Of a stretch of 64,000 nt of DNA, positions 508-47,798 are shown piece by piece. A program made the position numbers and the translations under genes. Source of the DNA: Eubacteriales bacterium (GTDB lineage: Bacteria; Bacillota; Clostridia; Oscillospirales; CAG-272); NCBI GenBank assembly GCA_045658185.1, contig JAZOUQ010000145.1, positions 53,247 through 117,246 of the forward strand. The letters are read 5' to 3'. Each line of letters begins with the position of its first letter. The stretch's first letter is position 1. The notes beneath the pieces are model-generated. The model was not told the origin of the DNA, did not search any database, and saw only the letters and a program-made list of their open reading frames with translations.

Positions 508-540
508 CAAAGGTTGCTACAAATTGTGGCAACCTTTGTT
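508..540 (+). terminator. Hairpin after fba
   Basis: Perfect 10-bp stem caaaggttgc/gcaacctttg with an 11-nt loop, just after the fba stop. The T tract is weak. Confidence 0.5.
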
Positions 541-570: not shown

Positions 571-1593
571 ATGACTAAGATAGATATAATTTCAGGTTTT
601 TTGGGGGCGGGAAAAACCACTCTTATTAACCGTCTGATTCACGAGGCATACGTGGGCGAAAAGCTTGTGCTTATCGAAAATGAATTCGGCGAGATAGGAA
701 TTGACGGTGGTTTTTTACAGGATGCAGGAGTACAGATCGCTGAAATGAATTCAGGCTGTATTTGTTGTTCTCTCGTGGGGGATTTCAGCAAGGCTTTGAC
801 TCAAGTGGTTAATGACTATAATCCCGATAGAATTATTATAGAGCCTTCAGGCGTTGGAAAGTTAAGTGACGTTACAAAGGCAGTTATTGATGCCAACATT
901 GAAAACACGGTAGTTAACAGTGCTGTTGTAGTTGTTGACGTGAATAAGTGCAAAATGTATATGAAAAATTTTGGAGAGTTCTTTAACGACCAGATAGAGC
1001 ATGCCGGCTGTATATATTTTAGCCATACAGATAAGACCACTGACGCAAAGCTGAGCGAAGCTGTAGATTTGATAAGACAGCACAATCAAACCGCAGAACT
1101 TATCGTAACGCCCGTTGATAAGCTCGATATTAAAACGATAATAGATGCATTTGAGAAAAAATCGTCTATTGAGGCTCAGCTGTCCGCTTTGGCTGAGGAA
1201 GGTTCAAGTCATCATCACCACCATCATCACGACGATGACTGTGATTGCCATGAGCATCACCACCACCATCACCACGATGAGGATTGTGATTGTCACGAGC
1301 ATCACCACCATCACGCTGAAGATGTGTTTACAAGCTGGGGCAGAGAAACATTAAAGAAATATTCTGCAGACGGTATATGCAATATACTTAAAGAGCTTCA
1401 AAACAGCGATAAATACGGCTTTATACTCAGAGCAAAGGGAATTGTTGAAAGCACCGACGGAACGTGGATACATTTTGATTACGTCCCCGAAGAGGCTGAC
1501 GTTCGTAGCGGTAGTGCTTCTACCATCGGAAAGCTGTGTGTAATAGGCTCTAAGGTCGACGAAGATGCGATTTGCAAGCTGTTTGAGCTGTGA
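571..1593 (+). CDS. COG0523 (CobW/HypB/UreG-type G3E) GTPase metallochaperone with His/Cys-rich insert
   Basis: Walker A GFLGAGKTTL, ENEFGE, the CxCC motif GCICCS, EPSGV and a CobW_C-like C-terminus. RBS agagg lies 7 nt upstream of the ATG. Confidence 0.85.
   Translation: MTKIDIISGFLGAGKTTLINRLIHEAYVGEKLVLIENEFGEIGIDGGFLQDAGVQIAEMNSGCICCSLVGDFSKALTQVVNDYNPDRIIIEPSGVGKLSDVTKAVIDANIENTVVNSAVVVVDVNKCKMYMKNFGEFFNDQIEHAGCIYFSHTDKTTDAKLSEAVDLIRQHNQTAELIVTPVDKLDIKTIIDAFEKKSSIEAQLSALAEEGSSHHHHHHHDDDCDCHEHHHHHHHDEDCDCHEHHHHHAEDVFTSWGRETLKKYSADGICNILKELQNSDKYGFILRAKGIVESTDGTWIHFDYVPEEADVRSGSASTIGKLCVIGSKVDEDAICKLFEL
1210..1314 (+). repeat. In-frame tandem duplication of a 45-nt unit encoding HHHHHHHD(D/E)DCDCHE, followed by H5
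   Basis: Unit 1 (1210-1254) and unit 2 (1255-1299) differ at 7 of 45 nt. Six changes are synonymous and one is D to E. Confidence 0.9.
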
Positions 1594-1607
1594 TTTAGGA
1601 GAGATAT

Positions 1608-2549
1608 ATGAAGATACCTGTATATTTGTTTACGGGATTTCTTGAAGGTGGAAAAACAAGTATTATTCAAGAATCTCTTAACGATGAAAAATTCAATACC
1701 GGTGAAAAAACCTTGGTTATATTGTGTGAAGAAGGAGAGGTTGAACTTGATTCTTCAAAGTTTTGGGGTAAGAACGTAACCATTTCTGTGATAGAAGATA
1801 AAGATTCTCTTACAAGAGAAAAACTTGAATCTTTGACGGTCAATCGTAAAATAGATAGAATTATCATTGAATATAATGGTATGTGGGAGCTTCAGAGATT
1901 GTACGAGAGCTTTCCTCAAAATTGGGCTATCTATCAAAATATGATGTTTGCTGATGCTAATACCTTCATCAACTACAACGCCAATATGCGTCAGCTTGTA
2001 GTTGATAAGATTCGTGACTGTGAAATGATCGTTCTCAACCGTGCATCTGATGCTATTGATAAGGATGAGATTCATAAGATCGTCAGAGGTATCAGTCGCC
2101 GTGCGGCTATCGTATACGATTATCCCGATGGACACGTAGAGTATGATGAAATGGAAGATCCGTTGCCTTACGATATAGATGCTCCCGTAATTGAAATATC
2201 CGAAGAGGATTATGCTATATGGTACAGAGATCTATCCGAGAATATGATGGCGTATAACGGCAAGACCGTCAAGTTTAAAGGCTTGGTAGCACATGACGAA
2301 AGACTTGATTCGAATTCGTTGGTAATCGGTCGTCCTATAATGACCTGCTGTGTTGACGACATTCAATATGCGGGACTTATCAGTGTATTTTCTAACAAAC
2401 CTTTACTCAAGGACGAGGAATGGGTAACAGTGAAGGGAACTATAAAAATAGAAAAGCACAAGCTTTACCGCACACAAGGTCCTGTTTTATACGTTCAAGC
2501 GACCGAATTTGCCGTACCACCTAAGCAAGTTGTTGCTACATTTTATTAA
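1608..2549 (+). CDS. COG0523-like GTPase lacking CxCC, fused to a DUF1980/TIGR03943-like C-terminal domain
   Basis: Walker A GFLEGGKT and IVLNRASD are present but there is no GCxCC. The C-terminal KTVKFKGLV...IGRPIMTCCVDDIQYAGL...WVTVKG resembles the YcgQ-type CC domain. It starts 14 nt after the upstream gene, with RBS aggaga. Confidence 0.6.
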   Translation: MKIPVYLFTGFLEGGKTSIIQESLNDEKFNTGEKTLVILCEEGEVELDSSKFWGKNVTISVIEDKDSLTREKLESLTVNRKIDRIIIEYNGMWELQRLYESFPQNWAIYQNMMFADANTFINYNANMRQLVVDKIRDCEMIVLNRASDAIDKDEIHKIVRGISRRAAIVYDYPDGHVEYDEMEDPLPYDIDAPVIEISEEDYAIWYRDLSENMMAYNGKTVKFKGLVAHDERLDSNSLVIGRPIMTCCVDDIQYAGLISVFSNKPLLKDEEWVTVKGTIKIEKHKLYRTQGPVLYVQATEFAVPPKQVVATFY

Positions 2550-2550
2550 G

Positions 2551-2585
2551 AAAAAAGAGTTGTTTCAAATTGAAACAACTCTTTT
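2551..2585. terminator. Bidirectional-looking intrinsic terminator
   Basis: An 11-bp stem gagttgtttca/tgaaacaactc with a 3-nt loop, flanked by an A run and a T run. Confidence 0.7.
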
Positions 2586-2608
2586 ATAATAAAATATATA
2601 AAATTTTC

Positions 2609-2646
2609 CAACCTTTTTCAAAATCCGTGTCTATATGGGTGAAAGC
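2609..2646 (+). promoter_or_regulatory. Candidate ECF-type promoter (copy 1): CAACC-N17-CTATATGGGTGAAAGC
   Basis: The motif is shared with the regions upstream of the other two sigma paralogues (20052-20090, 22028-22066). It ends 20 nt before the GTG start. Confidence 0.45.
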
Positions 2647-2665
2647 TTTCAATAGGAGAAAACAA

Positions 2666-4336
2666 GTGAACAGACAAGATGCAGAAAAAATTATAACAGA
2701 ATATCTGAAGCCCATATTTGGTTTTGCACTTAAGCGATGCAAGAACTTTCAGGATGCAGAGGATCTTTCGCAGGATATTGTGCTAAAAGCATTTAGAGCT
2801 ATTCTTATCAAAGATGATATTGGGGATGTGAGGAAATTTATTTGGACGATCGCTCATAACACGCTCAGCAATTATTATCGTGATTCCGCTAAAGGTATTA
2901 TTGGCGTATCTGTTGACGAATTTAAAGATTTTATTGCTGACCCCGATGCGGAGTATACTTCTGATGATAATGCAGAATCAATACATCGATTGCAAAATGA
3001 GATAGCCTATCTTTCAAAGCTTCAGCGTAAAATCGTGATTGCATATTATTTTGAAAATCGCAAGCAAGCAGATATTGCAAAGGATTTGGATATTCCTCTT
3101 GGCACTGTCAAATGGCATTTGTTTGAAGCAAAAAAAGAATTGAAACGAGGTATGGATACTATGAGAAAAACAAGTGAACTTAAATTTAATCCTATTAAAT
3201 TTTCATTATGTGGATTTGCGGGTTCAATCGGTACGAAGGGAAATGTTGGAAATTTCTTTCGTTCCTCAATCGTACAAAACATTGCATATTGCATTAAAGA
3301 TACACCTAAATCGATTAATGAGATTGCAGATGCACTTGGTGTTTCGCCAGTATATATTGAGAGCGAAGTTGAATATCTTGAAGAATACGGATTTTTACTC
3401 AAACAAGACAATAAATACATTATTAATTTTTTATTGGATGAACCCGACGAATACATTATCAAAATAAAGGAGGATATGTATTCGAAAGCCGCAAAGTTAT
3501 TTGCAAATGAATTATACGATTCCTTGTCTCAGAGTTCACTATTGAATAAATCAAACATTGTATGCTGTAATCGAATGGTCGATATTAACGAAGAAATGCA
3601 AGTGCCGATTTTTGAAAATGACCATAATTTTTTGCTTTGGTCATTAATTCCATATATAACTGCATTAAGTGGCGAAAAATATATGGATGATAAAATCAAA
3701 TTCGAGGAAGTGTGCACAATACGTCCAGACGGAGGGAAAAACATATGCTACGCCTCAATCGAAAATGATATTGTTCCTCAACACTTTGAAAGTATGAAAA
3801 AATTTTGTGGACCTTGTTGGAATGGATTTACAGATAAGTTTATTTTGTGGACTATTGATACAGAGTGGAGCAAAAGGCGAATTGATGATAACTATCAACT
3901 AACTGTCGCAAGAGACTTATCCGTTTTTGAACGCTTTTTTAACGATGAAGAGCTTTCTGATTTAGATTATGCCTATATGTACGAAAAAGGTTATATGAGA
4001 CGGTATGAAAGCATTCACGGTCGTTGGACAGGTTTGCAAATTGTATGGATAAGGAATACCGAAGCAAGAAAAATGCTACTTGAGTTTGGTGATAAGATTA
4101 AAGAAAAATATCAAGAAGAATTTGAAACATTAAAAGCTCCGTATGTAAAAGCTATTCTTGAAAGAACACCGAAGCATCTTCATAAAGCTCAAATGTATGG
4201 ACTTCAACATATTTTTTACAGTGATGGATGGTTTATTCTTCATTGTTTAAAGGAACTCGTTAACAACGGAAAATTGAAATTACCGACAGATGAACAAAGA
4301 AAATCATTAACAACTTTGATTGTACCTAATATATAA
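2666..4336 (+). CDS. Sigma-70/ECF-like sigma factor with ~380 aa C-terminal extension (paralogue 1)
   Basis: Region 2 DAEDLSQDIVLKAF and region 4.2 IPLGTVKWHLFEAKKEL. GTG start at 2666, 6 nt after AGGAGA. The listed start at 2570 is a TTG inside the upstream terminator. Confidence 0.75.
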   Translation: MNRQDAEKIITEYLKPIFGFALKRCKNFQDAEDLSQDIVLKAFRAILIKDDIGDVRKFIWTIAHNTLSNYYRDSAKGIIGVSVDEFKDFIADPDAEYTSDDNAESIHRLQNEIAYLSKLQRKIVIAYYFENRKQADIAKDLDIPLGTVKWHLFEAKKELKRGMDTMRKTSELKFNPIKFSLCGFAGSIGTKGNVGNFFRSSIVQNIAYCIKDTPKSINEIADALGVSPVYIESEVEYLEEYGFLLKQDNKYIINFLLDEPDEYIIKIKEDMYSKAAKLFANELYDSLSQSSLLNKSNIVCCNRMVDINEEMQVPIFENDHNFLLWSLIPYITALSGEKYMDDKIKFEEVCTIRPDGGKNICYASIENDIVPQHFESMKKFCGPCWNGFTDKFILWTIDTEWSKRRIDDNYQLTVARDLSVFERFFNDEELSDLDYAYMYEKGYMRRYESIHGRWTGLQIVWIRNTEARKMLLEFGDKIKEKYQEEFETLKAPYVKAILERTPKHLHKAQMYGLQHIFYSDGWFILHCLKELVNNGKLKLPTDEQRKSLTTLIVPNI

Positions 4337-5729: not shown

Positions 5730-6341
5730 TCAAGCTCTTTTCTCAAATATTTTGTCGATCAATCCGTATTCAAGAGCCTGCTTTGCAGTCATAAAATTAT
5801 CACGCTCGGTATCTCTTGCAATTTCTTCGATTGAACGTCCCGTATTTTCAGCAAGTATTCTATTAAGATTATCTCTTGTACGCAAGATCAGATCAGCCTG
5901 GATCTTTATATCACTTGCCTGACCCTTTGCACCGCCGAGGGGCTGGTGTATCATTATCTCGCTGTTGGGAAGGGCGATACGTTTGCCTTTCGCACCCGCC
6001 GAAAGCAGAAATGCCCCCATACTTGCTGCCATACCGATACAGATGGTAGATACGTCGCATTTTACGTAATTCATCGTATCGTAAATAGCCATGCCCGCCG
6101 TTACAGAGCCGCCGGGACTGTTAATGTAAAAGCTTATATCCTTATCGGGATCCTGTGCTTCAAGGAAAAGAAGCTGAGCGACAACCAAGGAGGCGGTTGC
6201 GTCATTGACTTCGTCTGACAAGAATATAATTCTATCATTGAGCAGACGGGAAAAAATGTCATAAGAGCGTTCACCCTTACCGGTTTGCTCAACAACCATA
6301 GGCACGAGAGCATTAAACATTTTGTCGTTCATATTAAACAT
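5730..6341 (-). CDS. clpP: ATP-dependent Clp protease proteolytic subunit ClpP
   Basis: [30 protein letters not shown] and MIHQP motifs, with AGGAGG as the RBS. Confidence 0.95.
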
Positions 6342-6373
6342 AACTACCTCCTGTGTCGCTTTAGCGATATAAA

Positions 6374-7657
6374 TTACTTGGTCTTAATGACCGCCTTTTC
6401 CTTAACAAGATCCATTGCCTTCTTGACCTTCATGTCAGCAGCAATAGCCTCGGAATCGATGCTTGCCTTAACCTGATCCAGCTCAACACCGTAAGCATTA
6501 GCAATATTCTGATATTCTTCGTTGATATCATCTTCGGTTGCCTCGATATTTTCAAGGGCAACTATCTTTTCAAGAGCAAGTCTTGCCTTAACCTGACGCT
6601 CTGCCTGAGGTCTCATCTGCTCACGGAGATTGTCAAGGGTAAGACCTGTGTACTTGAAGTAAGTATTGAGGTCAAGTCCCTGAGAACGGAGTCTGTTATC
6701 GTAATCACGAACGAAGTTTTCGGTTTCAGCTACGAACATAGCCTCAGGAATATCTGCCTCCAGCTTTTCGATAAGAGCTTCAACCAGCTTTTCCTCAACT
6801 GCATTATCAGCAGCAGCCTCATATCTCTTTTCGATTTTTGCCTTCAAATCAGCCTTATATTCATCAAATGTATCAAATTCTGATACGTCCTTTGCAAAAT
6901 CGTCATCAAGCTCGGGAAGCTCAACCTTGGTTATAGCGTGTATCTTTACCTTAAATACAGCTTCCTTACCTGCAAGACCTTCTGCGTGGTACTCGGTGGG
7001 GAAGGTTACGTTAACGTCAAATTCCTCATCGATGCTGTGTCCTGCAACCTGCTCCTCAAATCCGGGAATGAAAGAACCCGAACCGAGCTTGAGTGCGTAG
7101 TCGGTACCCTTACCACCCTCGAAAGCTACACCGTCACAGAAGCCCTCAAAGTCAATAACCGCAGTATCGCCCATTTCAGCGGCACGGTCGGTAACTTCGG
7201 TCTCTCTGGAATTTCTCTCTCTTACGGTTTCAATTTCTTTTGCTACGTCCTCATCGGTAACAGCGGTAACTTCCTTTTCAACCTCAATGCCAAGGTAGTC
7301 CTTAATTTCTACGTCAGGCTTTACATAAACCTTTGCAGAAAGAACAAGACCGTTATCGTCGATAGACACGATATCAAACTCAGGCTGACTTACAACGTCA
7401 AGCTTAGCTTCATCAAGTGCCTCTGCGTATGCAGAAGGAATAAGATCGTTGATAGCATCCTCGTAGAATACACCAGTGCCATACATTTTCTCAATAATGG
7501 ACTTGGGTGCTTTTCCTTTTCTGAATCCGGGAACAGTGATAGACTTTACCTGCTTGCGGTAAACCTTATCAACAGCTGCATCAAAGGTAGCTTTATCTAC
7601 CGAAATATGCAGTTCATACTGATTTTTTTCAATCAATTCAGACTTTGTTAAACTCAT
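6374..7657 (-). CDS. tig: Trigger factor
   Basis: The GFRKGKAP ribosome-binding signature, a central FKBP-like domain and the tig-clpP-clpX gene order. Confidence 0.95.
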
Positions 7658-7749
7658 TTGGTTTAAACCTCCGATATAATAAAATAATTTTTTTCATACC
7701 TATATATTGTACTTTTTTTGCGACGATTTGTCAATAGATTTTTAAAAAA

Positions 7750-8466
7750 TCACACGATTTTAGGGATAAAATCGAGAAAATCCGATGAAATCAAATAAAA
7801 TTTAATATTTTCATACTCAAAAACGTCAGCACACGAATAACTGCTGTGTATATGTCCGAAATAACACCTCTTAATATCATATGTTCGAAGAACATCAAAT
7901 ATTGGTTTGCAGACAAAATCTCCCCATACGGGAGGGAAGTGCAGAAAAACCAAAATTTCCTTATTGGTTTTCTCACTTAATTCTTTTGCTTGGGCGAGGG
8001 ATAAGTTCAATCTTATTGCTTCACGGTTTACAATTTTGTCGTAATCTACCGTCTCCTCGGCATTTTGCATTGATCTATCTGTGAACCATCCTCTTGAACC
8101 TGCAATTATATAATTTTCTATTTCAAGAGCGGTATTGTTTAAAACGCTGATTGTCGTTATATTATTTGTCTCAAAAAAAGTATTTAGTTTGGAAAGAGTA
8201 GACCACCAAAAATCATGATTTCCTTTAAGAATGATTTTTTTTCCGGGTAATTTGTCTAACCAGATAAGATCATTCAATGCGTCCGTAGTAGCGAGTCCCC
8301 AAGAAATATCTCCCGGGATTATAACGGTATCCGCATCCGAAACTACACTTTTCCATCTGTCGGAAATTTTATCTATGTAATTTATCCATCTTTTTCCAAA
8401 ACACTCCATCGACTTTTGTGGATTAGCAGTTGCCAGATGAAGATCAGCGATAACAAAAACAGCCAT
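7750..8466 (-). CDS. Metallophosphoesterase (calcineurin-like)
   Basis: VIADLHL, PGDISW, GNHDFWW and GHIH motifs. The start is trimmed to MAVFVIADLHL; the longer ORF overlaps the divergent gene. Confidence 0.75.
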   Translation of the reverse strand: MAVFVIADLHLATANPQKSMECFGKRWINYIDKISDRWKSVVSDADTVIIPGDISWGLATTDALNDLIWLDKLPGKKIILKGNHDFWWSTLSKLNTFFETNNITTISVLNNTALEIENYIIAGSRGWFTDRSMQNAEETVDYDKIVNREAIRLNLSLAQAKELSEKTNKEILVFLHFPPVWGDFVCKPIFDVLRTYDIKRCYFGHIHSSYSCADVFEYENIKFYLISSDFLDFIPKIV

Positions 8467-8541
8467 TAAATAAATCCTTATGTATAAATATTTTAATTGT
8501 GAAAACAATAATAGTATTCTTATCAAGGAGGTTTTGTAAGA

Positions 8542-8736
8542 ATGATAAACGAAAATCGTAATTCCACTACAAACGGTTGTAACACCGGAAAAGAACACAT
8601 CAAGGGAATAAAATGTGACGTCAGAAACTGCGTATACCACGACTGTGACACACACTGCACCGCGAACCAGATAGCTGTTGGCTGTTGTAACGGTACAAAC
8701 GGTGCTGAGTGCGACACTTTTAAGGAAAGAAAGTAA
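8542..8736 (+). CDS. Small Cys-rich protein, DUF1540-like
   Basis: The 64-aa product contains CDVRNCVYHDCDTHCTANQIAV, which fits the pattern C.V..C.Y......C.A..I.V. A strong RBS aaggagg precedes it and a terminator follows. Confidence 0.6.
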   Translation: MINENRNSTTNGCNTGKEHIKGIKCDVRNCVYHDCDTHCTANQIAVGCCNGTNGAECDTFKERK

Positions 8737-8755
8737 AAATATCGTGTTCGAATAT

Positions 8756-8784
8756 CAGGGGTTGTCGCGTTACGGCAACCCCTG
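8756..8784. terminator. Hairpin between convergent DUF1540 gene and thrC
   Basis: A 9-bp stem caggggttg/caacccctg. Confidence 0.6.
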
Positions 8785-8792
8785 ATTATCAA

Positions 8793-10271
8793 TTACATGA
8801 ACTTGTAAACCGCCTCAAGCATCTCGTGACTTTCGATGGTAGTGCTAAAGTTTATTTTTCTCTGTGCAAGATTACGAAGGGGATAGGATATTTCAGTATT
8901 TGTAAATGCAGAAAGATCGTCAAGAGCACCCGTATCCGCGGAAGCCTTTTTATCGGTCAGTGCTTCAAATACGTCTGCTGCAAACTTATAAGGACTCGCA
9001 GTAGAAGCAACTATCATTTTCTTCTTATCTCCCGTGGCTTTCACGTATTGCTCAGCACAGCTAAGAGCAACTGCGGTATGAGTATCTGCAAGGTAATCAA
9101 AGTCATTGTAAAAATGCTTTATGGTATCACGGGTCATGTTTTCGTCTGCGAAATATCCAACGAAATTCTCGGTGATAAGCGACTTAACATCATCACTTAC
9201 GGTATAAACACCGTTCTCATTGAGCTGTTTCATATAATTTGCGGTATTCTCAGATCCTGCGGTGAAATACAGAAGTCTTTCAAGATTGCTGGAAATGAGA
9301 ATATCCATTGAAGGCGATATGGTTGCGTGGAACTTTCTGTTTCTATCATACGTACCTGTTGCAAGAAAATCGGTAAGCACATTATTATCGTTCGACGCAC
9401 ATATAAACTTGGAGAAGGGAAGTCCCATTTTCTTTGCAAGGTATGCGGCGAAAATATTTCCAAAGTTACCCGTAGGAACACAAACGTTTACATCATCACC
9501 GTACTTTATCTCACCGTTATTTATCATATCGCAGTATGCGGATACGTAGTAAACTATCTGAGGTGCAAGACGTCCCCAGTTTATAGAGTTTGCACTGGAG
9601 AGTATGTAGCCATTTTCAAGAAGCTTTGCTTTTGCTTCGTCGTTTGCAAATATCTTCTTAACTCCGCTTTGGGCATCGTCAAAGTTTCCTTTTATAGCAC
9701 AAACGTTTACGTTGTTTCCTGTTTGTGTTACCATTTGGAGCTTTTGTACGTTGCTTACACCGTCAACGGGGTAAAACACCATGATCTTTATGCCATCAAT
9801 ATCCTTGTAGCCTTCAAGAGCGGCTTTTCCAGTGTCTCCCGAGGTTGCAACAAGAATAAGTGCGGTGTTATCCTCTCCCGTTTTCACAAGAGCACGTGAA
9901 AGCAAACGAGGCATTATCTGAAGAGCCATATCCTTGAATGCGGCGGTAGGACCGTGCCACAGCTCCAATGAATATATGGTATCGTTAACCTTCTTTAACT
10001 GAGCCGCACCGCCGGGGAATGAATCCTCACAATATGCTTTTTTACAATCGTCAAGAAGCTCCTCATAGGTGTAATCAGTAAGAAACATCGAAAGAACGGT
10101 TGCGGCTCTTTCAGGATAGCTCATTGCACACATTTTTTCAATAACTTCTTGTGATATTGTAGGTACGGTGTCAGGTACAAACAATCCACCGTCTGCAGCA
10201 AGTCCTTTCTTAATGACCACAGCAGAATCAAAGCTTGTTTTTTGTGAATCTCTGGTACTAAAATACTTCAT
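8793..10271 (-). CDS. thrC: Threonine synthase (long form)
   Basis: PLP-lysine context TAAFKDMALQ, plus SGDTG and SANSINWGR. Confidence 0.9.
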   Translation of the reverse strand: MKYFSTRDSQKTSFDSAVVIKKGLAADGGLFVPDTVPTISQEVIEKMCAMSYPERAATVLSMFLTDYTYEELLDDCKKAYCEDSFPGGAAQLKKVNDTIYSLELWHGPTAAFKDMALQIMPRLLSRALVKTGEDNTALILVATSGDTGKAALEGYKDIDGIKIMVFYPVDGVSNVQKLQMVTQTGNNVNVCAIKGNFDDAQSGVKKIFANDEAKAKLLENGYILSSANSINWGRLAPQIVYYVSAYCDMINNGEIKYGDDVNVCVPTGNFGNIFAAYLAKKMGLPFSKFICASNDNNVLTDFLATGTYDRNRKFHATISPSMDILISSNLERLLYFTAGSENTANYMKQLNENGVYTVSDDVKSLITENFVGYFADENMTRDTIKHFYNDFDYLADTHTAVALSCAEQYVKATGDKKKMIVASTASPYKFAADVFEALTDKKASADTGALDDLSAFTNTEISYPLRNLAQRKINFSTTIESHEMLEAVYKFM

Positions 10272-10291
10272 TTGGATATTCCTTTCTTTTT

Positions 10292-10672
10292 CTATGCTCC
10301 AAAAGCATTTTCAATGTAGTTAATATGTATCAGATTGTGGGAATCCTTGTGAAGAAAGATTTCCACAACATCAAATCTTGGCTGTAATTTAGAGTATTTA
10401 CTGTTCCTTAGATAAACTCGAGCGGCTTCGACCGTTCGTTTTTGCTTTTTGTAATCTACGGCAGATGCCGGTGTTCCAAATGGCGAAGATAAATCATTGT
10501 CAGTGCTGCGAGTCTTTACTTCCACGAACACTATAAAAGATTTATTTTTAGCAATAATATCAATCTCGTTGTGCGACATATGAATATTTGTTGCAATTAT
10601 GCGGTATTTATTTTTCTTTAAGTATTTTGCCGCAATATTTTCTCCTATTTTGCCGATTTCAACGGTTTTCAT
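10292..10672 (-). CDS. YraN family (UPF0102) endonuclease-like protein
   Basis: GENIAAKYL...NEIDIIA...VFVEVKTR. It overlaps the rnhB stop by 4 nt. Confidence 0.8.
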   Translation of the reverse strand: MKTVEIGKIGENIAAKYLKKNKYRIIATNIHMSHNEIDIIAKNKSFIVFVEVKTRSTDNDLSSPFGTPASAVDYKKQKRTVEAARVYLRNSKYSKLQPRFDVVEIFLHKDSHNLIHINYIENAFGA

Positions 10673-11277
10673 TTTTTATCTCCGTCAAGAAATCTTATAA
10701 ATTTTGTTCTGTGTATTGGTGCAGGTCCGTATTTTCTAAGAGCTTCCATATGTACCTTTGTACCATAGCCTTTATGCTTGGCTATTCCGTACATTGGATA
10801 TTGGGCATCCAATTCCGCACACAGACGGTCACGTGTGACCTTGGCAAGAATAGAAGCTGCCGCAATAGACGGTGAAATAGCATCTCCATGTACTACCGGT
10901 TTTGCTTCAACAGAAAATCCTCGTGCGATATTTCCGTCTATTAACGCAAAATCTGCTTTGACGTTCAATGAATCCACAGCACGATGCATAGCATCAAGTG
11001 TTGCTTCGAGTATGTTAGTCTGATTTATTTGCTCGACCGTTCCATAAGTTATTGAATAGGCTACGGCGTTTTCGCAAATTATATCAAACAACAATTCACG
11101 TTTCTTTTCGGTCAGTTTTTTAGAATCATTCAGCCCCTCGATATAGATACCGCAGGGAAGTATGACCGCGGCAGCTACAACAGGCCCACACAAAGGACCA
11201 CGCCCCGCCTCATCGACTCCGCATACATATTCATAGCCTTTATCGATAAGCTCTTGTTCAAGAGTATAATCAAGCAT
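10669..11277 (-). CDS. rnhB: Ribonuclease HII
   Basis: GVDEAGRGPLCGPVVAAAV, DSKKL and the ylqF-rnhB gene order. Confidence 0.9.
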   Translation of the reverse strand: MLDYTLEQELIDKGYEYVCGVDEAGRGPLCGPVVAAAVILPCGIYIEGLNDSKKLTEKKRELLFDIICENAVAYSITYGTVEQINQTNILEATLDAMHRAVDSLNVKADFALIDGNIARGFSVEAKPVVHGDAISPSIAAASILAKVTRDRLCAELDAQYPMYGIAKHKGYGTKVHMEALRKYGPAPIHRTKFIRFLDGDKK

Positions 11278-11280
11278 AAA

Positions 11281-12147
11281 TTACTCCTTACAGTCAAGTG
11301 ATATTCTACCGATTTTTGCGGATCTGTACTCGTCGATAAGCATATTGGCTGTTCTTTCGGTGTCAATTTCTCCACCGGAAATAAGGTGTCCGCGTTTTCT
11401 TCCTACAAGGCATAAAAGGTCGTAATCATTGACTTCTGACTCATCAGGAAGCTCGGTAAGCTTATATCTTTGCATAAAAAGCTGCGGATACATATTTCTG
11501 AGACGTCCGCAAAGAGCAGATGCAATCGTTTCAATGTCCAATACGTCGTCCTTTATAGCTCCGGTTATTGCTAAATTTTCTCCTACGGTACGCTCATCGA
11601 ACTTGGGCCAAAGAACACCCGGCATATCAAGTAATTGAACGCCAATGTTTGTGCTTACCCATTGTTTATCCAACGTAACACCGGGACGGTTTTCGACCTT
11701 TGCCTTTTTTGTTCCGCAAAGCTTGTTTATGAGTGATGATTTTCCGACGTTGGGAATACCCACGACCATAACCTTTATGGGTCTGCCGTGCATACCCTTT
11801 TCTTCATAACGAGAGATCTTATCTCCACACAATTCCTTAAGTGCAGGTGCTATTTTTGATATGCCTTGACCGCTTATGCAATCGGTTTCAATACATTTTG
11901 TAGTTTCGTTGCTGAATTTCTTTGACCAAAAAGCCGTAATTTCAGGGTCGGCAAGGGATGCCTTGTTTAAAAGCAGTAGCATTGGTTTTCCTGCACAAAG
12001 CTTGCTTATTTCCGGATTTCGTGAGCTGTATGGTATTCTTGCGTCGAGTATCTCTATTACCGCATCTACGCTTTTTAAATTTTCTGTAATGAGGCGTCTG
12101 GTTTTTGCCATATGCCCCGGGAACCATTGTATTACCTGTGATGGCAT
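11281..12147 (-). CDS. rbgA: Ribosome biogenesis GTPase A (YlqF/RbgA)
   Basis: IQWFPGHMAK and circularly permuted G motifs (LNKASL ... GIPNVGKSS). Confidence 0.9.
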   Translation of the reverse strand: MPSQVIQWFPGHMAKTRRLITENLKSVDAVIEILDARIPYSSRNPEISKLCAGKPMLLLLNKASLADPEITAFWSKKFSNETTKCIETDCISGQGISKIAPALKELCGDKISRYEEKGMHGRPIKVMVVGIPNVGKSSLINKLCGTKKAKVENRPGVTLDKQWVSTNIGVQLLDMPGVLWPKFDERTVGENLAITGAIKDDVLDIETIASALCGRLRNMYPQLFMQRYKLTELPDESEVNDYDLLCLVGRKRGHLISGGEIDTERTANMLIDEYRSAKIGRISLDCKE

Positions 12148-14034: not shown

Positions 14035-14207
14035 TTTTGCAACCTCTGTATAACATAAAATTTCATTTTATTATATCACATAATGGTTTGTTTTACAATA
14101 AATTTTGATATTTTTTAATAAAAATTTAAATAAAAATTCTCCAAAAACATTGAAAAAATCTGATATATATGTTAAGATAATGTCATACATAGTTTTTGGA
14201 GGAAAAA

Positions 14208-14855
14208 ATGCGACAAAATTTGTTAAAAGAAGGGAAGTCCAAAAATAATAATCCCAAAAAGAGATTGATTATAATAATCTTATCAATCATCGGTGCTATA
14301 TTAGTGTTAGGCATAGCTTCGATAATTATTGACTCACTTGAAAAAGAAGAAGAATTTGTAGTTGATTACAATTTCTATCCCGCAGATTTTAACGAAAATA
14401 TATTTGAAGATGCAGAATATCTTGATCTTGTATCCGCAGAATTTATAACGTATACCGATAGCTCCACTAATATCACGGTGGGAATCGATAGAGATAAAGC
14501 GGGAGAACACGGTACGGGAGTTAAATTTTTGGTGGATATGATCTATGATATAATAAACGGTGATCACGAAGCCTATAATGCAAGATTTAGTGATTCGTAT
14601 TACAAAAAACATTCACCTAAAGAAAGCTTTACAATGCAAAAGGTTTATGACGTAAATATCACTTACGTATCGTCGGAAAGTGGTAACGATTATACAAAAT
14701 CATTGTATACATTGGAGTATAAAATATTAGAGAACAACGGTACATTCCGTAAAGATATCGGTGCAGGATCAAAAAAACAGTATTTCACACTAATAACAAC
14801 AGGAGACAAGATTCTTGTTGACTCTGTAACCACGGTAAACTCAGCGAAAAAATAA
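14208..14855 (+). CDS. Hypothetical N-terminally membrane-anchored protein
   Basis: GGAGG lies 6 nt before the ATG at 14208. One TM segment (LIIIILSIIGAILVLGIASIII) is followed by a soluble domain with no motif I recognise. Confidence 0.5.
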   Translation: MRQNLLKEGKSKNNNPKKRLIIIILSIIGAILVLGIASIIIDSLEKEEEFVVDYNFYPADFNENIFEDAEYLDLVSAEFITYTDSSTNITVGIDRDKAGEHGTGVKFLVDMIYDIINGDHEAYNARFSDSYYKKHSPKESFTMQKVYDVNITYVSSESGNDYTKSLYTLEYKILENNGTFRKDIGAGSKKQYFTLITTGDKILVDSVTTVNSAKK

Positions 14856-15607: not shown

Positions 15608-16345
15608 ATGGCTTTTATTGACTTTGACACAGTAGTTATCTATGACGTAACCATTGATGATAAAGTTCGTTTTGAAAACAAAAAACTACCTGATTTATTG
15701 CAATATCTATGCAGTATCGGAATTAAAAAAATTATTTTTCTTTATGACGCACCGTCTTCGCTAAATCAAAGTGAAAATTTTATAAAAAGAAAATCTGTTA
15801 AGCACTTTCTCAAACAAATGCGTCCCCGAGGTATGTCCTTTTATGTTGCACCGAACGTAAAACTAACTACGGATAAATTAAAACGCTCGGATATAAAAAG
15901 CTTTACTCTTTATAACTCCAATAAAATATTTTTACAACTCCCCACAGGAATATCGGATATTCGCATACGAGAACATATTGATATGATTCATTCAAAACAT
16001 ATGATTCCTGTATTCACCGCGTTTGAGCAGGACTGCTTTAGCACTCGTTTTCAAACCATTAAGGACGATTTTATTCCAAGATTGTTATGGATGAAAAAAG
16101 CATATTTTTGTCTGGACATCAGACAAATGTCTTACAGAAAGAATTGGATATATATGAGTAAAATTTTAGACAATTATAACGCTAAAATATTACCGTGTAT
16201 ATCTATCGACCCTAATAAATACAGATACACTCCGACCGTTACGGATCTATACGCACTTATGCGTAAACGAATTGGGGATAAAAAATATTTGGAATTTTGT
16301 AAGCACATAAATGAATCTACAAAATCATTTTTTGACGACTTGTGA
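15608..16345 (+). CDS. CpsB/PHP-like protein with degenerate metal-binding residues (putative pseudo-phosphatase)
   Basis: Its length (245 aa) and block order resemble CpsB: IDFDTV for IDIHSH, YVAPNVKLTTDKLKR for YGAEIYYTPDVLDKLEK, and IPVFTAFEQ for TPVIAHIERY. This comparison is from memory. Confidence 0.4.
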   Translation: MAFIDFDTVVIYDVTIDDKVRFENKKLPDLLQYLCSIGIKKIIFLYDAPSSLNQSENFIKRKSVKHFLKQMRPRGMSFYVAPNVKLTTDKLKRSDIKSFTLYNSNKIFLQLPTGISDIRIREHIDMIHSKHMIPVFTAFEQDCFSTRFQTIKDDFIPRLLWMKKAYFCLDIRQMSYRKNWIYMSKILDNYNAKILPCISIDPNKYRYTPTVTDLYALMRKRIGDKKYLEFCKHINESTKSFFDDL

Positions 16346-20051: not shown

Positions 20052-20090
20052 CAACCAAATTTAAAAACACCACACTATATGGATGAAAGG
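20052..20090 (+). promoter_or_regulatory. Candidate ECF-type promoter (copy 2): CAACC-N18-CTATATGGATGAAAGG
   Basis: Same motif as at 2609-2646 and 22028-22066. It ends 10 nt before the ATG at 20101. Confidence 0.45.
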
Positions 20091-20100
20091 AGGCGAGAAA

Positions 20101-21708
20101 ATGCAAGAAACGAATAAAATGCGAGATATGCTTATACATGAGTTTACCGAAAGCTATATGGAAAAGTTGTTTTATTTCTGCTTAAAAAAGACAGGCAGTC
20201 ATGTTCACGCCGAGGATTTGACACAAGATATTGCACTCCAAATCATTACGGCATTGAATAAAGGCACGATTCCAACAAGCTTTTCGGCTTGGGTATGGCA
20301 GATCGCACGCAACCGTTATTCAGTATGGGCAAAAGAAAAGCATAATCGAAACGAAGCGCAAAGCGGTTCAGATATCGGCGATTATGAGATCGAGGACAAG
20401 GGCGAAAATATCCTTGATGAAATGATACATACAGAGCAAATGGCTCTGCTTCGGCGAGAGCTGGCGTTCATCAAAAGTGATTATCGCAACATTGTCGTTG
20501 CCTATTACATAGAAAATAAAAGTATTCGTGATATTGCATCGTCACTTTCGCTTCCTACGAACACGGTAAAGTCACGACTTTTCCGTGCAAGAGAAATTTT
20601 GAAAGAAGGTATGGATATGGCAAGAGAATTTGGTAAACGCAGTTATAACCCAGAGGATATCACTTTTGCTTCAAGTGGTGCTCAACCAAGTGGACTTCCG
20701 TGGCGTGTAGTTCAAAGAAAGATTCCAAAAAACATTTTGCTTCACGCAAATAACAACCCCTCAACGTTAGAAGAAATTTCCATTGAACTGGGTATTGCAC
20801 TTCCCTACATAGAAGAAGAAGTGGAAATTCTACATAAAGCAACACTTCTCGAAAATCAAGGAAACAAATATATAACAAATTTCTTTATATTAGATAAAGA
20901 TTGTCGTATGGAAGCCTATTATGCGTTAAGAAGTGAAGCAAGAGAAAGAAGTCGTCTTATTGGCGAATTTATAGAAGAAAAAATATCGGATATCAGAGAA
21001 TTGGGGATTGCAGGAATGCATATTGACGACAATACCGTTAAATGGTGGTTAGCTCCCAATCTTATTGACTATTTAATTTACAACGGTGTAACAGAACGAC
21101 ATAGTGCTAAACCAATTCAACGTGCTAACGGAGAATCATGGGGATTTGTTGGATACGAAATAACCGAGCTTCCGGAAAAACTGACGATGGGACAAAATGG
21201 AAACGGATCTCAAAAAAGTATGTTTTGGACATATAAGTTCGGTGATTATTCCCTGTGGGATCAATGCGGAGAGCCGAGATATGATGAGGCATTGCTGATG
21301 GCAGAATGTGTTTGTCAAAAACGGTTTGTTACATCTTTAACAGATATTGAGAAAGGAATATGGAAACGTATTGACGGAAAATATGCCCATGCGGACGATA
21401 CCGGGGAGATTATTGCAGATATTCTTGTAATCTCAGAAGATAATCTTAACAAAATACATCAGCTTTTCCGTCAGCATAAAAACTATGAGCAGCTTTCTAA
21501 AAACATAACAAATGCATATAAAAAGGTGGATAAAATTTTCAAGAATTATAGCCATAAAGTTTTACATGATAACCTTAATTATTATATATGCAGTGAGTTA
21601 TATAAAGCGAGAATGATGGCTGTTCACGATTTGGTTGATGACGGTGTTTTGAAATTGCCTGAAGATACAAGTAAATCTTCTTTGGGAATGTACATTATTC
21701 TTAAATAA
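20101..21708 (+). CDS. Sigma-70/ECF-like sigma factor with ~350 aa C-terminal extension (paralogue 2)
   Basis: Region 2 HAEDLTQDIALQI and region 4.2 LPTNTVKSRLFRAREIL. The start is set at the ATG 7 nt after AGGAGG; the listed ATG at 20083 lies inside the promoter motif. Confidence 0.75.
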   Translation: MQETNKMRDMLIHEFTESYMEKLFYFCLKKTGSHVHAEDLTQDIALQIITALNKGTIPTSFSAWVWQIARNRYSVWAKEKHNRNEAQSGSDIGDYEIEDKGENILDEMIHTEQMALLRRELAFIKSDYRNIVVAYYIENKSIRDIASSLSLPTNTVKSRLFRAREILKEGMDMAREFGKRSYNPEDITFASSGAQPSGLPWRVVQRKIPKNILLHANNNPSTLEEISIELGIALPYIEEEVEILHKATLLENQGNKYITNFFILDKDCRMEAYYALRSEARERSRLIGEFIEEKISDIRELGIAGMHIDDNTVKWWLAPNLIDYLIYNGVTERHSAKPIQRANGESWGFVGYEITELPEKLTMGQNGNGSQKSMFWTYKFGDYSLWDQCGEPRYDEALLMAECVCQKRFVTSLTDIEKGIWKRIDGKYAHADDTGEIIADILVISEDNLNKIHQLFRQHKNYEQLSKNITNAYKKVDKIFKNYSHKVLHDNLNYYICSELYKARMMAVHDLVDDGVLKLPEDTSKSSLGMYIILK

Positions 21709-22081: not shown

Positions 22082-23668
22082 ATGGAGAGGCAAATGGATA
22101 GTATAAAACTTGAACAACTGATAACCGAGAATATGAAGTCGATCTTTGGATTTGCACTGACGAGGCTTGGCAATGTAATTGAAGCCGAAGAGCTTGCGAG
22201 CGACATTCTTTATGAGATCATTAAATCCGCAAAAAATCTAAAAGACGAAAATCGTTTTTACGGATTTATGTGGAAGATTGCGGAAAATACCTATATGAAC
22301 TATCTTCGCAAAAAATCAAAAAATGCAAGTCGAACAGCAGAACTTGACGAAAATATTGCCGATAAATCGGACTCTGTTTTGGAGGAATTAATCAAAAAGG
22401 AAGATTTAAATCTGCTTCGTCGGGAACTCTCCTTGTTATCAAAGCAATACCGCGACACTACGGTTTTATACTATTTCGAAGATCTCTCTTGTTCCGAAGT
22501 TGCGGAAAAATTACAGATTAGCACGGAAATGGTAAAGTATTATTTATTCCGTGCAAGAAAATTTATCAGAGAGGGTATGAATATGGAAAGATTATTCGGT
22601 GAAAAAAGCTATCGTCCCGGAAGTTTTGAAATTGATTTTTGGGGAACAAAAGCAGGAGATGACTTTGAATATCGAGATTTTCAAAGAAGAAAGATTAAAG
22701 GAAATATTTTACTTGCAGCATATTATAGCCCGGTAACTATTCAAGAAATAAGCATCGAACTCGGAGTCGCACTTCCCTATCTTGAGGACGAGATCAAACT
22801 GCTTGTTGATCGAGAATATCTCGTGTGCAAAAACGAAAAGTATCTGACCAACATTCCAATCTTCACACTTGATTGCACTAAAACGATTGATGAAAAACTG
22901 AAAGAGCTTACCGAGTATACCGCTAAAAAATTCATAGAAGTTGCGGATAATTTTGACTTGCGTTTTGGTGATCGTTTTGAAAATGAAAATCTTGCCCATT
23001 GGCAAAAGATTCTCTTATGCCTGCACTTTTCATTGATTGACACCGAAAATGATATCAAAAACAACTATGGTGAATTGCCCAAAGACGGACCGTATTCACT
23101 TGTCAACGGTGGAGGCGGACACGGAATCATTTGGGGGCGAAGCACGATAAATGTTGTTGGTGATAAGCATCCGAGAGGAATCCAAGGCATTTATAACGGT
23201 TGCCCTGCGAGTGATAAAAGCGGAAGTGTAATAGCAATGAATTTTAGACAAATCCTTAATGCTCAACACTTTGAGGGGAATATGACCAATCCGGTGGTTT
23301 GTACTGCGGTAGATTGTTATAATCATTTGCCGAAGGATTGGAAGGAACTGCTTGATAAGCTTGGATATGCAAAGAATAGCAAAGCAAACTTTGCTGTTTG
23401 GACGAATGAAGAATACGCTGAACTGCGAAAGATTCTCGTCGAGTGTATTGCCATTGTATCTGAGTTGAATTGCAAAACCTCGGAAATCGCCGCCAATATA
23501 ACTGCTGACCTCGCTCCTGCCCACATCCGAAAAGTCGCAGAATATGTAGGTGCGTTTGTTTACCGCTTCAATTCTATTGACAATTTAATAAACACCTTGT
23601 TTGACATGAATTGGGTGAAATCAGTTGATGAGATGGAAAAACCAGCTATTTGTGTTGTGAAGAATTGA
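22082..23668 (+). CDS. Sigma-70/ECF-like sigma factor with ~350 aa C-terminal extension (paralogue 3)
   Basis: Region 2 EAEELASDILYEI and region 4.2 ISTEMVKYYLFRARKFI. An alternative start at 22094 would give the same N-terminal length as paralogue 1. Confidence 0.75.
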   Translation: MERQMDSIKLEQLITENMKSIFGFALTRLGNVIEAEELASDILYEIIKSAKNLKDENRFYGFMWKIAENTYMNYLRKKSKNASRTAELDENIADKSDSVLEELIKKEDLNLLRRELSLLSKQYRDTTVLYYFEDLSCSEVAEKLQISTEMVKYYLFRARKFIREGMNMERLFGEKSYRPGSFEIDFWGTKAGDDFEYRDFQRRKIKGNILLAAYYSPVTIQEISIELGVALPYLEDEIKLLVDREYLVCKNEKYLTNIPIFTLDCTKTIDEKLKELTEYTAKKFIEVADNFDLRFGDRFENENLAHWQKILLCLHFSLIDTENDIKNNYGELPKDGPYSLVNGGGGHGIIWGRSTINVVGDKHPRGIQGIYNGCPASDKSGSVIAMNFRQILNAQHFEGNMTNPVVCTAVDCYNHLPKDWKELLDKLGYAKNSKANFAVWTNEEYAELRKILVECIAIVSELNCKTSEIAANITADLAPAHIRKVAEYVGAFVYRFNSIDNLINTLFDMNWVKSVDEMEKPAICVVKN

Positions 23669-47711: not shown

Positions 47712-47798
47712 GCCGGTGTGATGGAATTGGCAGACGTGCTGGACTCAAAATCCAGTGGTAGCGATACCGTGTCGGTTCGACCCCGACCACCGGCACCA
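47712..47798 (+). tRNA. tRNA-Leu (anticodon CAA), type II with long variable arm, CCA encoded
   Basis: Acceptor GCCGGTG/CACCGGC, anticodon stem-loop CTGGA-CTCAAAA-TCCAG, variable arm TGGTAGCGATACCGTG, T arm GTCGG-TTCGACC-CCGAC and a 3' ACCA. Confidence 0.9.

Follow-up and report, generated by a model that had tools for sequence, protein, structure and literature searches.

What does a GTPase of the COG0523 metallochaperone family do with a second, degenerate GTPase encoded directly behind it? This question is raised by two adjacent genes near one end of a stretch of 64,000 nucleotides from an Eubacteriales bacterium (contig JAZOUQ010000145.1; the whole stretch is called the window here). Gene 1 encodes a complete COG0523-type protein carrying the CxCC metal-binding motif, and gene 2 encodes a divergent G-domain without CxCC, which we call G*, fused to a DUF1980_C domain; neither protein has a name in the source annotation. 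On balance, we favor the view that the two genes are one functional unit, a cytosolic metal-handling module, probably for Zn(II), in which gene 2 is the obligate partner of gene 1. The related loci described below point to its most likely origin: a metal permease system coupled to GTPases, probably for zinc, from which the pair would derive as a cytosolic form without the permease.

The two genes are inherited together as one conserved unit. We collected loci of gene 2 orthologs from 79 species-level genomes, spanning 35-82% identity, and 74 of them carried a COG0523 gene with a CICC motif, mostly His-rich, directly upstream on the same strand, the distance between the genes ranging from an overlap up to about 200 nt. 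Four further loci were cut by contig ends and a single one, L036, was a true exception. Where enough sequence lay upstream, metagenome loci of this type were arranged in the same way. The proposal of an earlier reading of this DNA made without database searches (the sequence-only reading) would have failed if the pair did not stay together in relatives, and on this point it is supported. Hosts belong to Oscillospiraceae, Acutalibacteraceae, Christensenella, Lachnospiraceae, Eubacterium ruminantium, Bovifimicola and [Clostridium] fimetarium, mostly from rumen and gut. The family of gene 2 is large: more than 7,500 database proteins matched among 8,000 candidates scored, 304 clusters at 50% identity matched at E <= 1e-30, and thousands of homologs are intact with a constant length of about 313 amino acids, under source names such as "GTPase", "G3E family GTPase", "hypothetical" or "YcgQ". 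The other neighbors of the pair are clade-specific housekeeping genes, for example dprA, comM/yifB, topA, glgB and codY in one clade.

Two ideas suggested by these surveys were rejected. The aldolase gene fba adjoins the pair in nine close relatives, and its product, a Zn-dependent class II aldolase, was considered as a client of the pair; the synteny is limited to that clade. Some longer homologs of gene 2 (P0123, with 435 amino acids, P0232, P0254, P0265 and P0326) were considered as natural fusions of gene 1 and gene 2; they are assembly artefacts, in which the first ~150 residues are duplicated internally or the C-termini are frameshifted or chimeric.

We then looked at each protein. The closest solved structure to gene 1 is YjiA (E = 1.5e-18), and gene 1 shares with the known COG0523 metallochaperones (E. 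coli YjiA, A. baumannii ZigA/MigC, B. subtilis ZagA/YciC, CobW and the eukaryotic ZNG1) the P-loop, ENEFGE, GCxCC and the ExxG of the G3 motif, as well as a His-rich linker and a C-terminal domain with RxKG. When 67 orthologs from species-level genomes were aligned, CxCC, ENEFGE and RxKG were retained in 64-67 of the 67, the G3 motif, IIIEPSGVG in the window protein, was kept as IEPSGVGK, and the number of His residues in the linker varied from 3 to 73, with a median of 41. In the Pfam scan CobW_C scored 19.7 bits against a gathering score of 22; the domain is nonetheless real, since RxKG is invariant and the Vescimonas ortholog reaches 30.7 bits. For the relative of gene 1 in locus L086 (39% identity over the full length), CobW_C is part of the precomputed annotation. 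RxKG was recently shown to be an arginine finger with which COG0523 proteins, through their C-terminal domain, activate GTP hydrolysis in their own G-domain (2026 preprint, PMC13001444). Gene 1 differs from the known members in two respects. Its subfamily has an unexpected G4 consensus, S-[R/H]-T-x and not NKxD, and none of the curated NCBIfam equivalogs is reached (score/cut-off: CobW 86/332, YjiA-type 78/361, ZigA 75/600). Judging from these motifs, gene 1 has all the sequence features of an active COG0523 chaperone except the canonical G4 motif, and, given this G4, the nucleotide preference of its subfamily may not be strictly GTP.

The G-domain of gene 2 is a recognizable relative of the same family (cobW 41 bits, gathering score 20.7), but it lacks CxCC, the G4 Asp and CobW_C; the motifs that bind phosphate and Mg are retained. 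A profile search with gene 2 found YjiA at E = 2e-5, which is the best PDB match both by sequence and by fold. Conservation was read from the 79 aligned genome orthologs, from a diverse 19-sequence set and from an 82-sequence set. Down to 37% identity, G10, G15, K16, T17 and N144-R145 are invariant or nearly so, together with a remodelled switch I (C40-E41-x-G43-x-x-E46) and the G3 stretch I87-E-Y-N-G-M-W-E94, which keeps ExxG; G15, K16, E88 and G91 are strictly invariant, and T17 is nearly so in the 19-sequence set and fully so in the 82-sequence set. Neither the window protein nor any of the 78 genome orthologs examined has CxCC. C40 was aligned by HMMER to N38 of YjiA, one residue past E37. 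The title of PDB entry 4ixn describes a Zn(II)-bound E37A/C66A/C67A triple mutant of YjiA, which points to E37, C66 and C67 as residues of interest at the YjiA metal site. The G-domains of gene 1 and gene 2 are only 26% identical, and the duplication from which they come is therefore old. The sequence-only reading had described the canonical COG0523 set and a His/Cys insert in gene 1, the P-loop GFLEGGKT and no CxCC in gene 2, and a second open reading frame beginning 14 nt after the first; both frames lie where it placed them and all the motifs that it quoted were found at the expected residues. Its description of NRASD in gene 2 as NKxD-like holds in part, as N144-R145 is kept among orthologs, whereas the position of the guanine-specificity Asp aligns to S147 and D148 is not conserved.

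In place of a C-terminal domain with RxKG, for which no CobW_C match was obtained, residues 183-306 of gene 2 form a DUF1980_C domain, as had been recognized from the letters alone (hidden Markov model scan, PF21537, 94 bits against a gathering score of 25.9). The conserved CC motif lies in residues 240-256, IGRPIMTCCVDDIQYAG, and W272 and P292 are further residues of this domain that are invariant, or nearly so, down to 37% identity. TIGR03943 scored 85.6 bits against a cut-off of 88.8 and covered model positions 99-219 only, that is, its C-terminal half. We found in gene 2 no match to PF09323, the N-terminal membrane domain of DUF1980 proteins, and no hydrophobic segment. NCBIfam has no model covering gene 2, and neither window protein falls in a curated equivalog. 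The AlphaFold2 model of gene 2, made with the 82-sequence alignment, is confident, with a predicted local distance difference test score (pLDDT) of 91 and a predicted template modelling score (pTM) of 0.67. Foldseek searches of the PDB matched its N-terminal half to YjiA, HypB and UreG and its C-terminal ~120 residues to oligonucleotide/oligosaccharide-binding (OB) folds, namely the anticodon-binding domains of Asp/Asn-tRNA synthetases, CST subunits and the MCM N-terminal domain. By sequence, no match of DUF1980_C to any solved structure was found.

The origin of the second cysteine pair becomes clear by comparing gene 2 with canonical DUF1980/TIGR03943 proteins such as B. subtilis YcgQ and S. 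pyogenes ScfB, with which it shares the C-terminal domain and its R-x-x-h-x-CC-x-x-D motif. This motif is common to gene 2 and to the membrane-anchored TIGR03943 proteins of Priestia and C. butyricum; the canonical forms read ARFGISCCAAD and ARYIMVCCAAD, and FRFGIIHCVAD in Listeria, with HC in place of CC. Since the CC pair is native to canonical DUF1980_C, it was not relocated from the G-domain. The proposal of the sequence-only reading that the metal-binding cysteine pair had "moved" to another domain was thus abandoned; the motif belongs to DUF1980_C, and the CxCC-less G-domain, as the comparisons below indicate, is an old and separate paralog lineage, found elsewhere alone or fused to PF03773.

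The annotated replicons of Priestia, Listeria and C. butyricum invariably encode the TIGR03943 protein in the second gene of a tight pair, after a PF03773 (ArsP_1) "permease" (YcgR in B. subtilis, ScfA in S. pyogenes), so that the DUF1980_C protein comes second in a two-gene unit as it does in the window. These permeases carry CEC/CDC motifs inside membrane segments, and that of Listeria has in addition a His-rich loop. Gene 2 differs from the canonical proteins by having a G-domain in place of the membrane anchor and no permease nearby. PF03773 adjoins DUF1980 in all canonical loci examined and at no locus of the window's type: none was found in the 64-kb window, nor within 6-7 kb of any fetched locus. 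Among the PF03773 matches listed (40 of 68 records, 10 of 19 genera named) Vescimonas and Subdoligranulum do not occur. A simple hydropathy and charge analysis of eleven canonical DUF1980 proteins gave three transmembrane segments, a K/R-rich loop between the second and the third, and a linker rich in S, N and T. By the positive-inside rule these proteins would be N-in/C-out, and canonical DUF1980_C is probably extracytoplasmic, whereas that of gene 2 must be cytosolic.

The main experimental finding on these membrane pairs is a fitness phenotype in vivo: the group A Streptococcus homologs scfAB are dispensable in vitro and needed in vivo (PMC5584981), and a PF03773 gene beside zntR was important under zinc stress in Shewanella loihica (preprint 10.1101/072470). 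We also noted that a Priestia sp. J2 plasmid (pA, L082:5780-5950) encodes a "GTP-binding protein" of 56 amino acids that is a COG0523 C-terminal fragment with IVRAKGI; it adjoins a canonical permease/TIGR03943 pair, a major facilitator superfamily transporter and a nickel/cobalt ATP-binding cassette (ABC) transporter, another hint of an association of COG0523 with the canonical system.

We asked where G* occurs outside the window's arrangement. Loci were sorted by a metagenome scan with home-built hidden Markov models, which gave 80 further loci (L087-L166), the Pfam cross-check applying to L081-L086 and L036 only. Results showed three architectures with a constant gene order throughout. In Type I, a CxCC COG0523 gene with its C-terminal domain is followed by a stand-alone G*, a PF03773 permease and a transmembrane DUF1980 protein with both N- and C-terminal domains (L086, L092-L095, L097 and L101, partially in L096 and L098). 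In Type II, G* is fused to the permease (L083 and L085, which are two complete C. butyricum replicons, and L087-L090), and in L087 a COG0523 gene is also present upstream. Type III is the arrangement of the window, a CxCC COG0523 gene with its C-terminal domain followed by G*-DUF1980_C. The flanks of Types I and II are mostly unrelated genes, with CbiQ/O at L087 and a cation diffusion facilitator exporter at L092.

The fusion of Type II is hidden in the annotated "permease" of C. butyricum, a protein of 537 amino acids with the same length in two complete strains, whose first ~180 residues are a CxCC-less cobW domain (52 bits) followed by ArsP_1 (200 bits). This G* is nearer to gene 2 (31% identity, E = 9e-17) than to gene 1 (25%, E = 4e-10). 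Type I can be followed in L086, where precomputed Pfam annotation reads, on one strand, ZnuA, cobW with CobW_C (366 amino acids), then after 3 nt cobW only (192 amino acids; P0379, the stand-alone relative of G*), ArsP_1 and DUF1980 with DUF1980_C. In this locus the DUF1980 gene is divided into two open reading frames (6706-7104 and 7118-7546), either by a frameshift or by a genuine split. GKT and ExxG are common to all G* domains, none of which has CxCC, and NKxD is replaced in them by NN or NR; Cys40 is largely specific to Type III. In the relatives G* is linked to a permease for thiophilic metals, either by fusion or by gene order.

Type III would be what an in-frame loss of the permease and of the DUF1980 membrane segment from Type I leaves. 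As canonical permease/DUF1980 pairs without any GTPase are found in several genera of Bacilli and in Clostridium, the membrane form is likely ancestral and Type III derived. The window pair can be described as the soluble end-member of a four-component system made of COG0523, G*, permease and DUF1980, a context that the sequence-only reading had missed.

We also looked for signals that could link the pair to a metal. Zur, Fur, PerR and E. coli-Zur boxes, or a shared 7-1-7 palindrome, were searched upstream of the window pair and of 65 orthologous loci and nothing recurrent was found; the best candidates upstream of the 66 pairs had 2 mismatches and occurred in 2 loci. On this point the sequence-only reading, which had seen no convincing Zur palindrome, agrees with the wider survey, and its assignment of the pair to a metal-handling family is supported as well. 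In other clades the pair has plain TTGACA-N17-TATAAT promoters. The membrane forms look different: Type II loci, including L087, carry TGCAAAT-N1-3-ATTGCAAC between the -10 element and the ribosome-binding site, this element being a perfect 7-1-7 palindrome, TGCAAATCATTTGCA, at L083:2873-2887 and L089:6973-6987, and a related site precedes the ZnuA-family gene of L086. The 7-1-7 AAT-N-ATT layout is that of Fur-family boxes, as in the B. subtilis Zur, Fur and PerR consensus sequences, and the Type II palindrome is a candidate Zur site.

Two loci give more context. In L036, the exception mentioned above, the gene 2 ortholog has no gene 1-type neighbor and heads a cluster (5977-11432) in which it is followed, all on the same strand, by a FUR-family regulator, an AdcA-like ZnuA+ZinT binding protein, a canonical ZigA-like COG0523 (293 bits, NKSD and RTKG motifs) and an AztA/ZnuC-like ATPase. 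An 8-5-8 palindrome, TGAAAATGATTCACATTTTCA, lies at 7076-7096, after the -10 element of the fur-family gene, and only a degenerate relative of it is present upstream of the gene 2 ortholog. In L086 the module has a promoter of its own, and its first gene is that of the ZnuA family. In the same locus cbiM-cbiN are preceded by a cobalamin riboswitch; control of the module by it was rejected, as a terminator and a promoter lie between. We put the odds for zinc at about even, which makes it the most likely metal, nickel or cobalt being the alternatives.

From the domain make-up, the conserved pairing, the series of architectures and the fold, which are shown above, we propose how the pair might work; the physical interaction, the direction of transfer and the identity of the metal are what we infer. 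Gene 1 would be a working COG0523 metallochaperone with its CxCC metal site in the switch region, its His/Cys-rich linker would capture metal, and its RxKG arginine finger would stimulate its own nucleotide hydrolysis. Gene 2 would be its obligate partner, in which G*, keeping GKT and ExxG, would still bind nucleotide, having lost CxCC, the guanine-specificity Asp and the self-activating domain. G* would dock on gene 1, possibly by a contact between G-domains as in HypB and UreG, and the OB fold of DUF1980_C would give a second thiolate site made of C247, C248 and D251, perhaps with the Type III-specific C40. Metal would then be handed between the DUF1980_C site and the CxCC site of gene 1 under nucleotide control. 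According to this mechanism, G* is a docking or regulatory G-domain, which in Types I and II would link permease and COG0523 chaperone on the cytoplasmic side and in Type III would bring the DUF1980_C thiolate site into the cytoplasm.

HypB and UreG, the nickel-insertion GTPases, are the closest models for such a contact, as the G3E fold is common to them and to the window proteins by Foldseek. Their G-domains pair up in a nucleotide-dependent manner, with the metal held between them by Cys ligands, and His-rich stretches for metal storage are known from these proteins. On the other hand, HypB and UreG are homodimers with the same ligands from both subunits, whereas the G-domains of the window have diverged from each other, only one has a Cys motif in its switch region, and the dimer is putative. 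For Type II only, FeoB provides an analogy, with a cytoplasmic G-domain at the N-terminus of a metal permease; its G-domain, however, is of the TRAFAC class and G* of the SIMIBI/G3E class, its permease family is different, and the window pair has no membrane component.

Several points weigh against a cytosolic zinc module of this kind. COG0523 proteins are thought to be monomeric, with the C-terminal domain occupying the face used for HypB-type dimers (review PMC11672702), and gene 1 retains that domain; a heterodimer of G-domains as in HypB and UreG is therefore attractive but uncertain. Because the canonical domain is predicted outside the cell, the fusion changed the compartment of DUF1980_C, and its function in the cytoplasm may differ from the canonical one. 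As neither gene 1 nor gene 2 has a canonical NKxD, GTP specificity is uncertain for both partners. The window pair and nearly all Type III loci have plain sigma-70-type promoters or a position after a terminator, with no shared Fur/Zur-type box, so zinc-responsive expression is not indicated at the window pair. Finally, the zinc context of L036 comes from one genome only.

The choice of metal is where a different answer has the most to say for itself. The module and mechanism could be the same with nickel or cobalt as cargo, supplying the Ni/Co enzymes of strict anaerobes (hydrogenases, carbon monoxide dehydrogenase, corrinoids), which we consider possible although clearly less probable. The long His-rich linker resembles those of nickel proteins of the HypB, UreE and SlyD type (His stretches in G3E proteins are discussed by Haas et al. 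2009), L086 and L087 adjoin cbiM/N/Q/O cobalt/nickel transporter genes, with a cobalamin riboswitch nearby, the canonical pair of Priestia lies beside a nickel/cobalt ABC transporter, and a Zur box is absent at Type III loci. However, the L086 module is set apart from cbiMN and the riboswitch by a strong terminator and by a promoter of its own, and it starts with a ZnuA-family gene; the context of L036 (ZinT domain, AdcA-like, AztA-like) is specifically zinc, and the phenotype of PF03773 in Shewanella is one of zinc stress. A second question is whether gene 2 ever left the membrane system. It could still be a transporter subunit that docks on a PF03773 permease or on another metal transporter encoded elsewhere and gates it from the cytoplasm, gene 1 receiving the metal; indeed, in Type II G* is joined to the permease at its cytoplasmic N-terminus, and in Type I it is encoded immediately upstream of the permease gene, which suggests that the ancestral partner of G* was the permease. 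We regard this as unlikely for the window pair, as the 64-kb window and the 6-7 kb around the fetched Type III loci hold no PF03773 homolog and as canonical DUF1980_C is predicted to lie across the membrane from G*.

More tentatively, and with distinctly less confidence than we give to the cytosolic module, Types I-III may together represent a previously unrecognized class of GTPase-coupled metal permease with a relay to a COG0523 chaperone, of which the window pair would be a cytoplasm-internalized version. The extracellular, Cys-bearing DUF1980_C would capture metal, the PF03773 permease would conduct it, the CxCC-less G* at the cytoplasmic mouth would gate or receive it, and the CxCC COG0523 chaperone would carry it away; in the window pair G* would present the thiolate site of the OB domain directly to the chaperone. 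Two other explanations appear very improbable. Gene 2 might be an evolutionary leftover, a decaying duplicate fused by accident and uncoupled from gene 1, the adjacency reflecting shared descent. Its G-domain is certainly degenerate, scoring only 41 bits with cobW, many homologs are not called cobW in precomputed Pfam, and CxCC, the NKxD Asp and CobW_C have all been lost. Yet some 30 residues, GKT, ExxG, R242, CC and D251 among them, stay invariant in sequences as far apart as 37% identity, and these columns, which indicate strong purifying selection, contradict decay; moreover, homologs stay intact and constant in length by the thousands, and the adjacency is kept while all other neighbors change between clades. 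Just as improbable is a role in translation or ribosome biology, with the OB fold binding a nucleic acid such as tRNA or rRNA and not taking part in metal transfer. The Foldseek matches to Asp/Asn-tRNA synthetase, CST and MCM domains, a weak tRNA_anti-like Pfam match in the canonical protein of C. butyricum, and the COG0523 relative MRF, which according to the name of its model recruits a ribosome hibernation factor, would be in line with it, but the canonical domain is membrane-tethered, probably extracellular and always paired with a Cys-motif permease, its invariant residues are CC/HC and Asp with no basic surface, and the contexts are metal-uptake genes. The cytosolic module with gene 2 as obligate partner of gene 1 is thus the reading that we retain.

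The positions of the features discussed here are collected in Table 1.

Table 1. Positions of the features of the gene pair in the window and of the loci compared with it
Feature	Locus	Position	Strand	Remarks
Terminator hairpin of upstream class II fructose-bisphosphate aldolase gene	window	508..539	+	RNA fold -20.1 kcal/mol, z = -7.1
Gene 1	window	571..1593	+	complete COG0523-type G3E GTPase, 340 amino acids; cobW 132 bits
Gene 1 P-loop GFLGAGKT, residues 9-16	window	595..618	+	sequence, orthologs
Gene 1 switch I IENEFGE, residues 35-41	window	673..693	+	(nearly) invariant in 67 orthologs
Gene 1 CxCC metal-binding motif GCICCS, residues 62-67	window	754..771	+	C63, C65 and C66 invariant in 67/67 orthologs
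Gene 1 G4 region FSHTD	window	1018..1032	+	non-canonical; Asp in 15/67 orthologs only
Gene 1 His/Cys-rich linker SSH7D3CDCHEH7DEDCDCHEH5, residues 212-248	window	1204..1314	+	direct sequence reading
Gene 1 LRAKG (RxKG arginine-finger motif of the C-terminal domain, which acts as GTPase-activating protein on its own G-domain)	window	1426..1440	+	R287 in 67/67, K289 in 66/67, G290 in 66/67 orthologs
Ribosome-binding site AGGAG of gene 2	window	1598..1602	+	within the 14-nt spacer between gene 1 and gene 2
Gene 2	window	1608..2549	+	G*-DUF1980_C fusion, 313 amino acids; predicted soluble, without hydrophobic segment
G* domain of gene 2 (divergent G3E G-domain, without CxCC)	window	1617..2108	+	cobW 41 bits, residues 4-167
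G* P-loop GFLEGGKT, residues 10-17	window	1635-1658	+	GKT conserved
G* switch I LCEEGEVE with conserved Cys40	window	1722-1745	+	ortholog alignment
G* G3 IIIEYNGMW	window	1860-1886	+	ExxG retained
G* degenerate G4 LNRASD	window	2034-2051	+	N144-R145 kept only
DUF1980_C domain of gene 2, OB-fold barrel	window	2154..2525	+	PF21537 94 bits, residues 183-306
Invariant motif G241-R242-x-x-M-T-C247-C248-x-x-D251 in DUF1980_C of gene 2	window	2325-2375	+	ortholog alignments
Palindromic terminator hairpin, then U-run; ends the two-gene unit	window	2553..2585	+	-17.6 kcal/mol, z = -7.2
Annotated "permease", a G*-PF03773 fusion	L083	2901-4514		C. butyricum megaplasmid
Annotated "permease", a G*-PF03773 fusion	L085	1401-3014		C. 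butyricum megaplasmid
Cobalamin riboswitch	L086	1194-1332		ahead of cbiM-cbiN
Cluster genes	L086	1490-7546		cbiM-cbiN, then znuA-like, COG0523, G*, permease and DUF1980 genes
Terminator	L086	2626-2663		followed by the separate promoter
Separate promoter	L086	2788-2816		serves znuA-like, COG0523, G*, permease and DUF1980 genes

In the window the aldolase (fba) reading frame upstream of gene 1 ends at 487. The inverted repeat behind it was considered as an operator and this role was rejected: it is the fba terminator, with a strong fold and with compensatory changes in its stems in the relatives L002, L004, L005, L026 and L035. As the terminator leaves only about 30 nt before the start of gene 1, expression of the pair in this clade may depend on read-through or on a weak promoter overlapping the hairpin. 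An Rfam scan of the 64-kb window found no riboswitch and one tRNA only, a tRNA-Leu(CAA) at 47712-47798, which is the only RNA gene of the window by Rfam and ARAGORN.

Other features of the window are given for completeness. Three long proteins of 528-588 amino acids resembling extracytoplasmic function (ECF) sigma factors are encoded on the + strand (2570-4336, 20083-21708 and 22082-23668), with N-terminal sigma-70 regions 2 and 4 followed by an extension of 350-400 amino acids that has no Pfam match, and they are 32-37% identical to each other over the first ~265 residues. The first of these genes lies directly downstream of the pair and is not kept in relatives, where clpX is found instead. 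Two reading frames without Pfam match, 14196-14855 (219 amino acids) and 15608-16345 (245 amino acids), fall in the stretch of lowest GC content (0.32 at 14-16 kb, compared with about 0.40).

Concerning novelty, the literature searched treats COG0523 members as single-protein chaperones, and we did not find an obligate paired CxCC-less paralog described. In full-text searches neither the fusion nor CxCC-less COG0523 paralogs nor a link between COG0523 and PF03773 came up, and DUF1980 was mentioned once, incidentally. The pair thus gives a known chaperone family a partner architecture that is abundant and yet undescribed, widespread in Clostridia of gut and rumen, and the Type I and II relatives plausibly lead on from it to a GTPase-coupled permease system of a categorically new kind. 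The system is coherent, but its public annotation as "GTPase", "GTP-binding protein", "YcgQ" or "permease" conceals this.

COG0523 proteins occur in every kingdom and are important when cells have to survive zinc starvation. A subfamily that always comes with a dedicated partner would make the question of where these chaperones obtain their metal directly testable. In related loci the halves of this partner are fused to, or encoded beside, a Cys-motif permease and its accessory domain, which may show how chaperone and transport are connected; if the relay from permease to chaperone outlined above were true, it would be the first direct hand-off from an importer to a metallochaperone for the COG0523 family. 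Both forms have hosts in culture: the membrane form is found in C. butyricum, the soluble one in Eubacterium ruminantium, Vescimonas fastidiosa and [Clostridium] fimetarium. Moreover, the system offers a first clue to the function of DUF1980/TIGR03943 and of the ScfAB-type permease pair, on which group A Streptococcus depends during infection.

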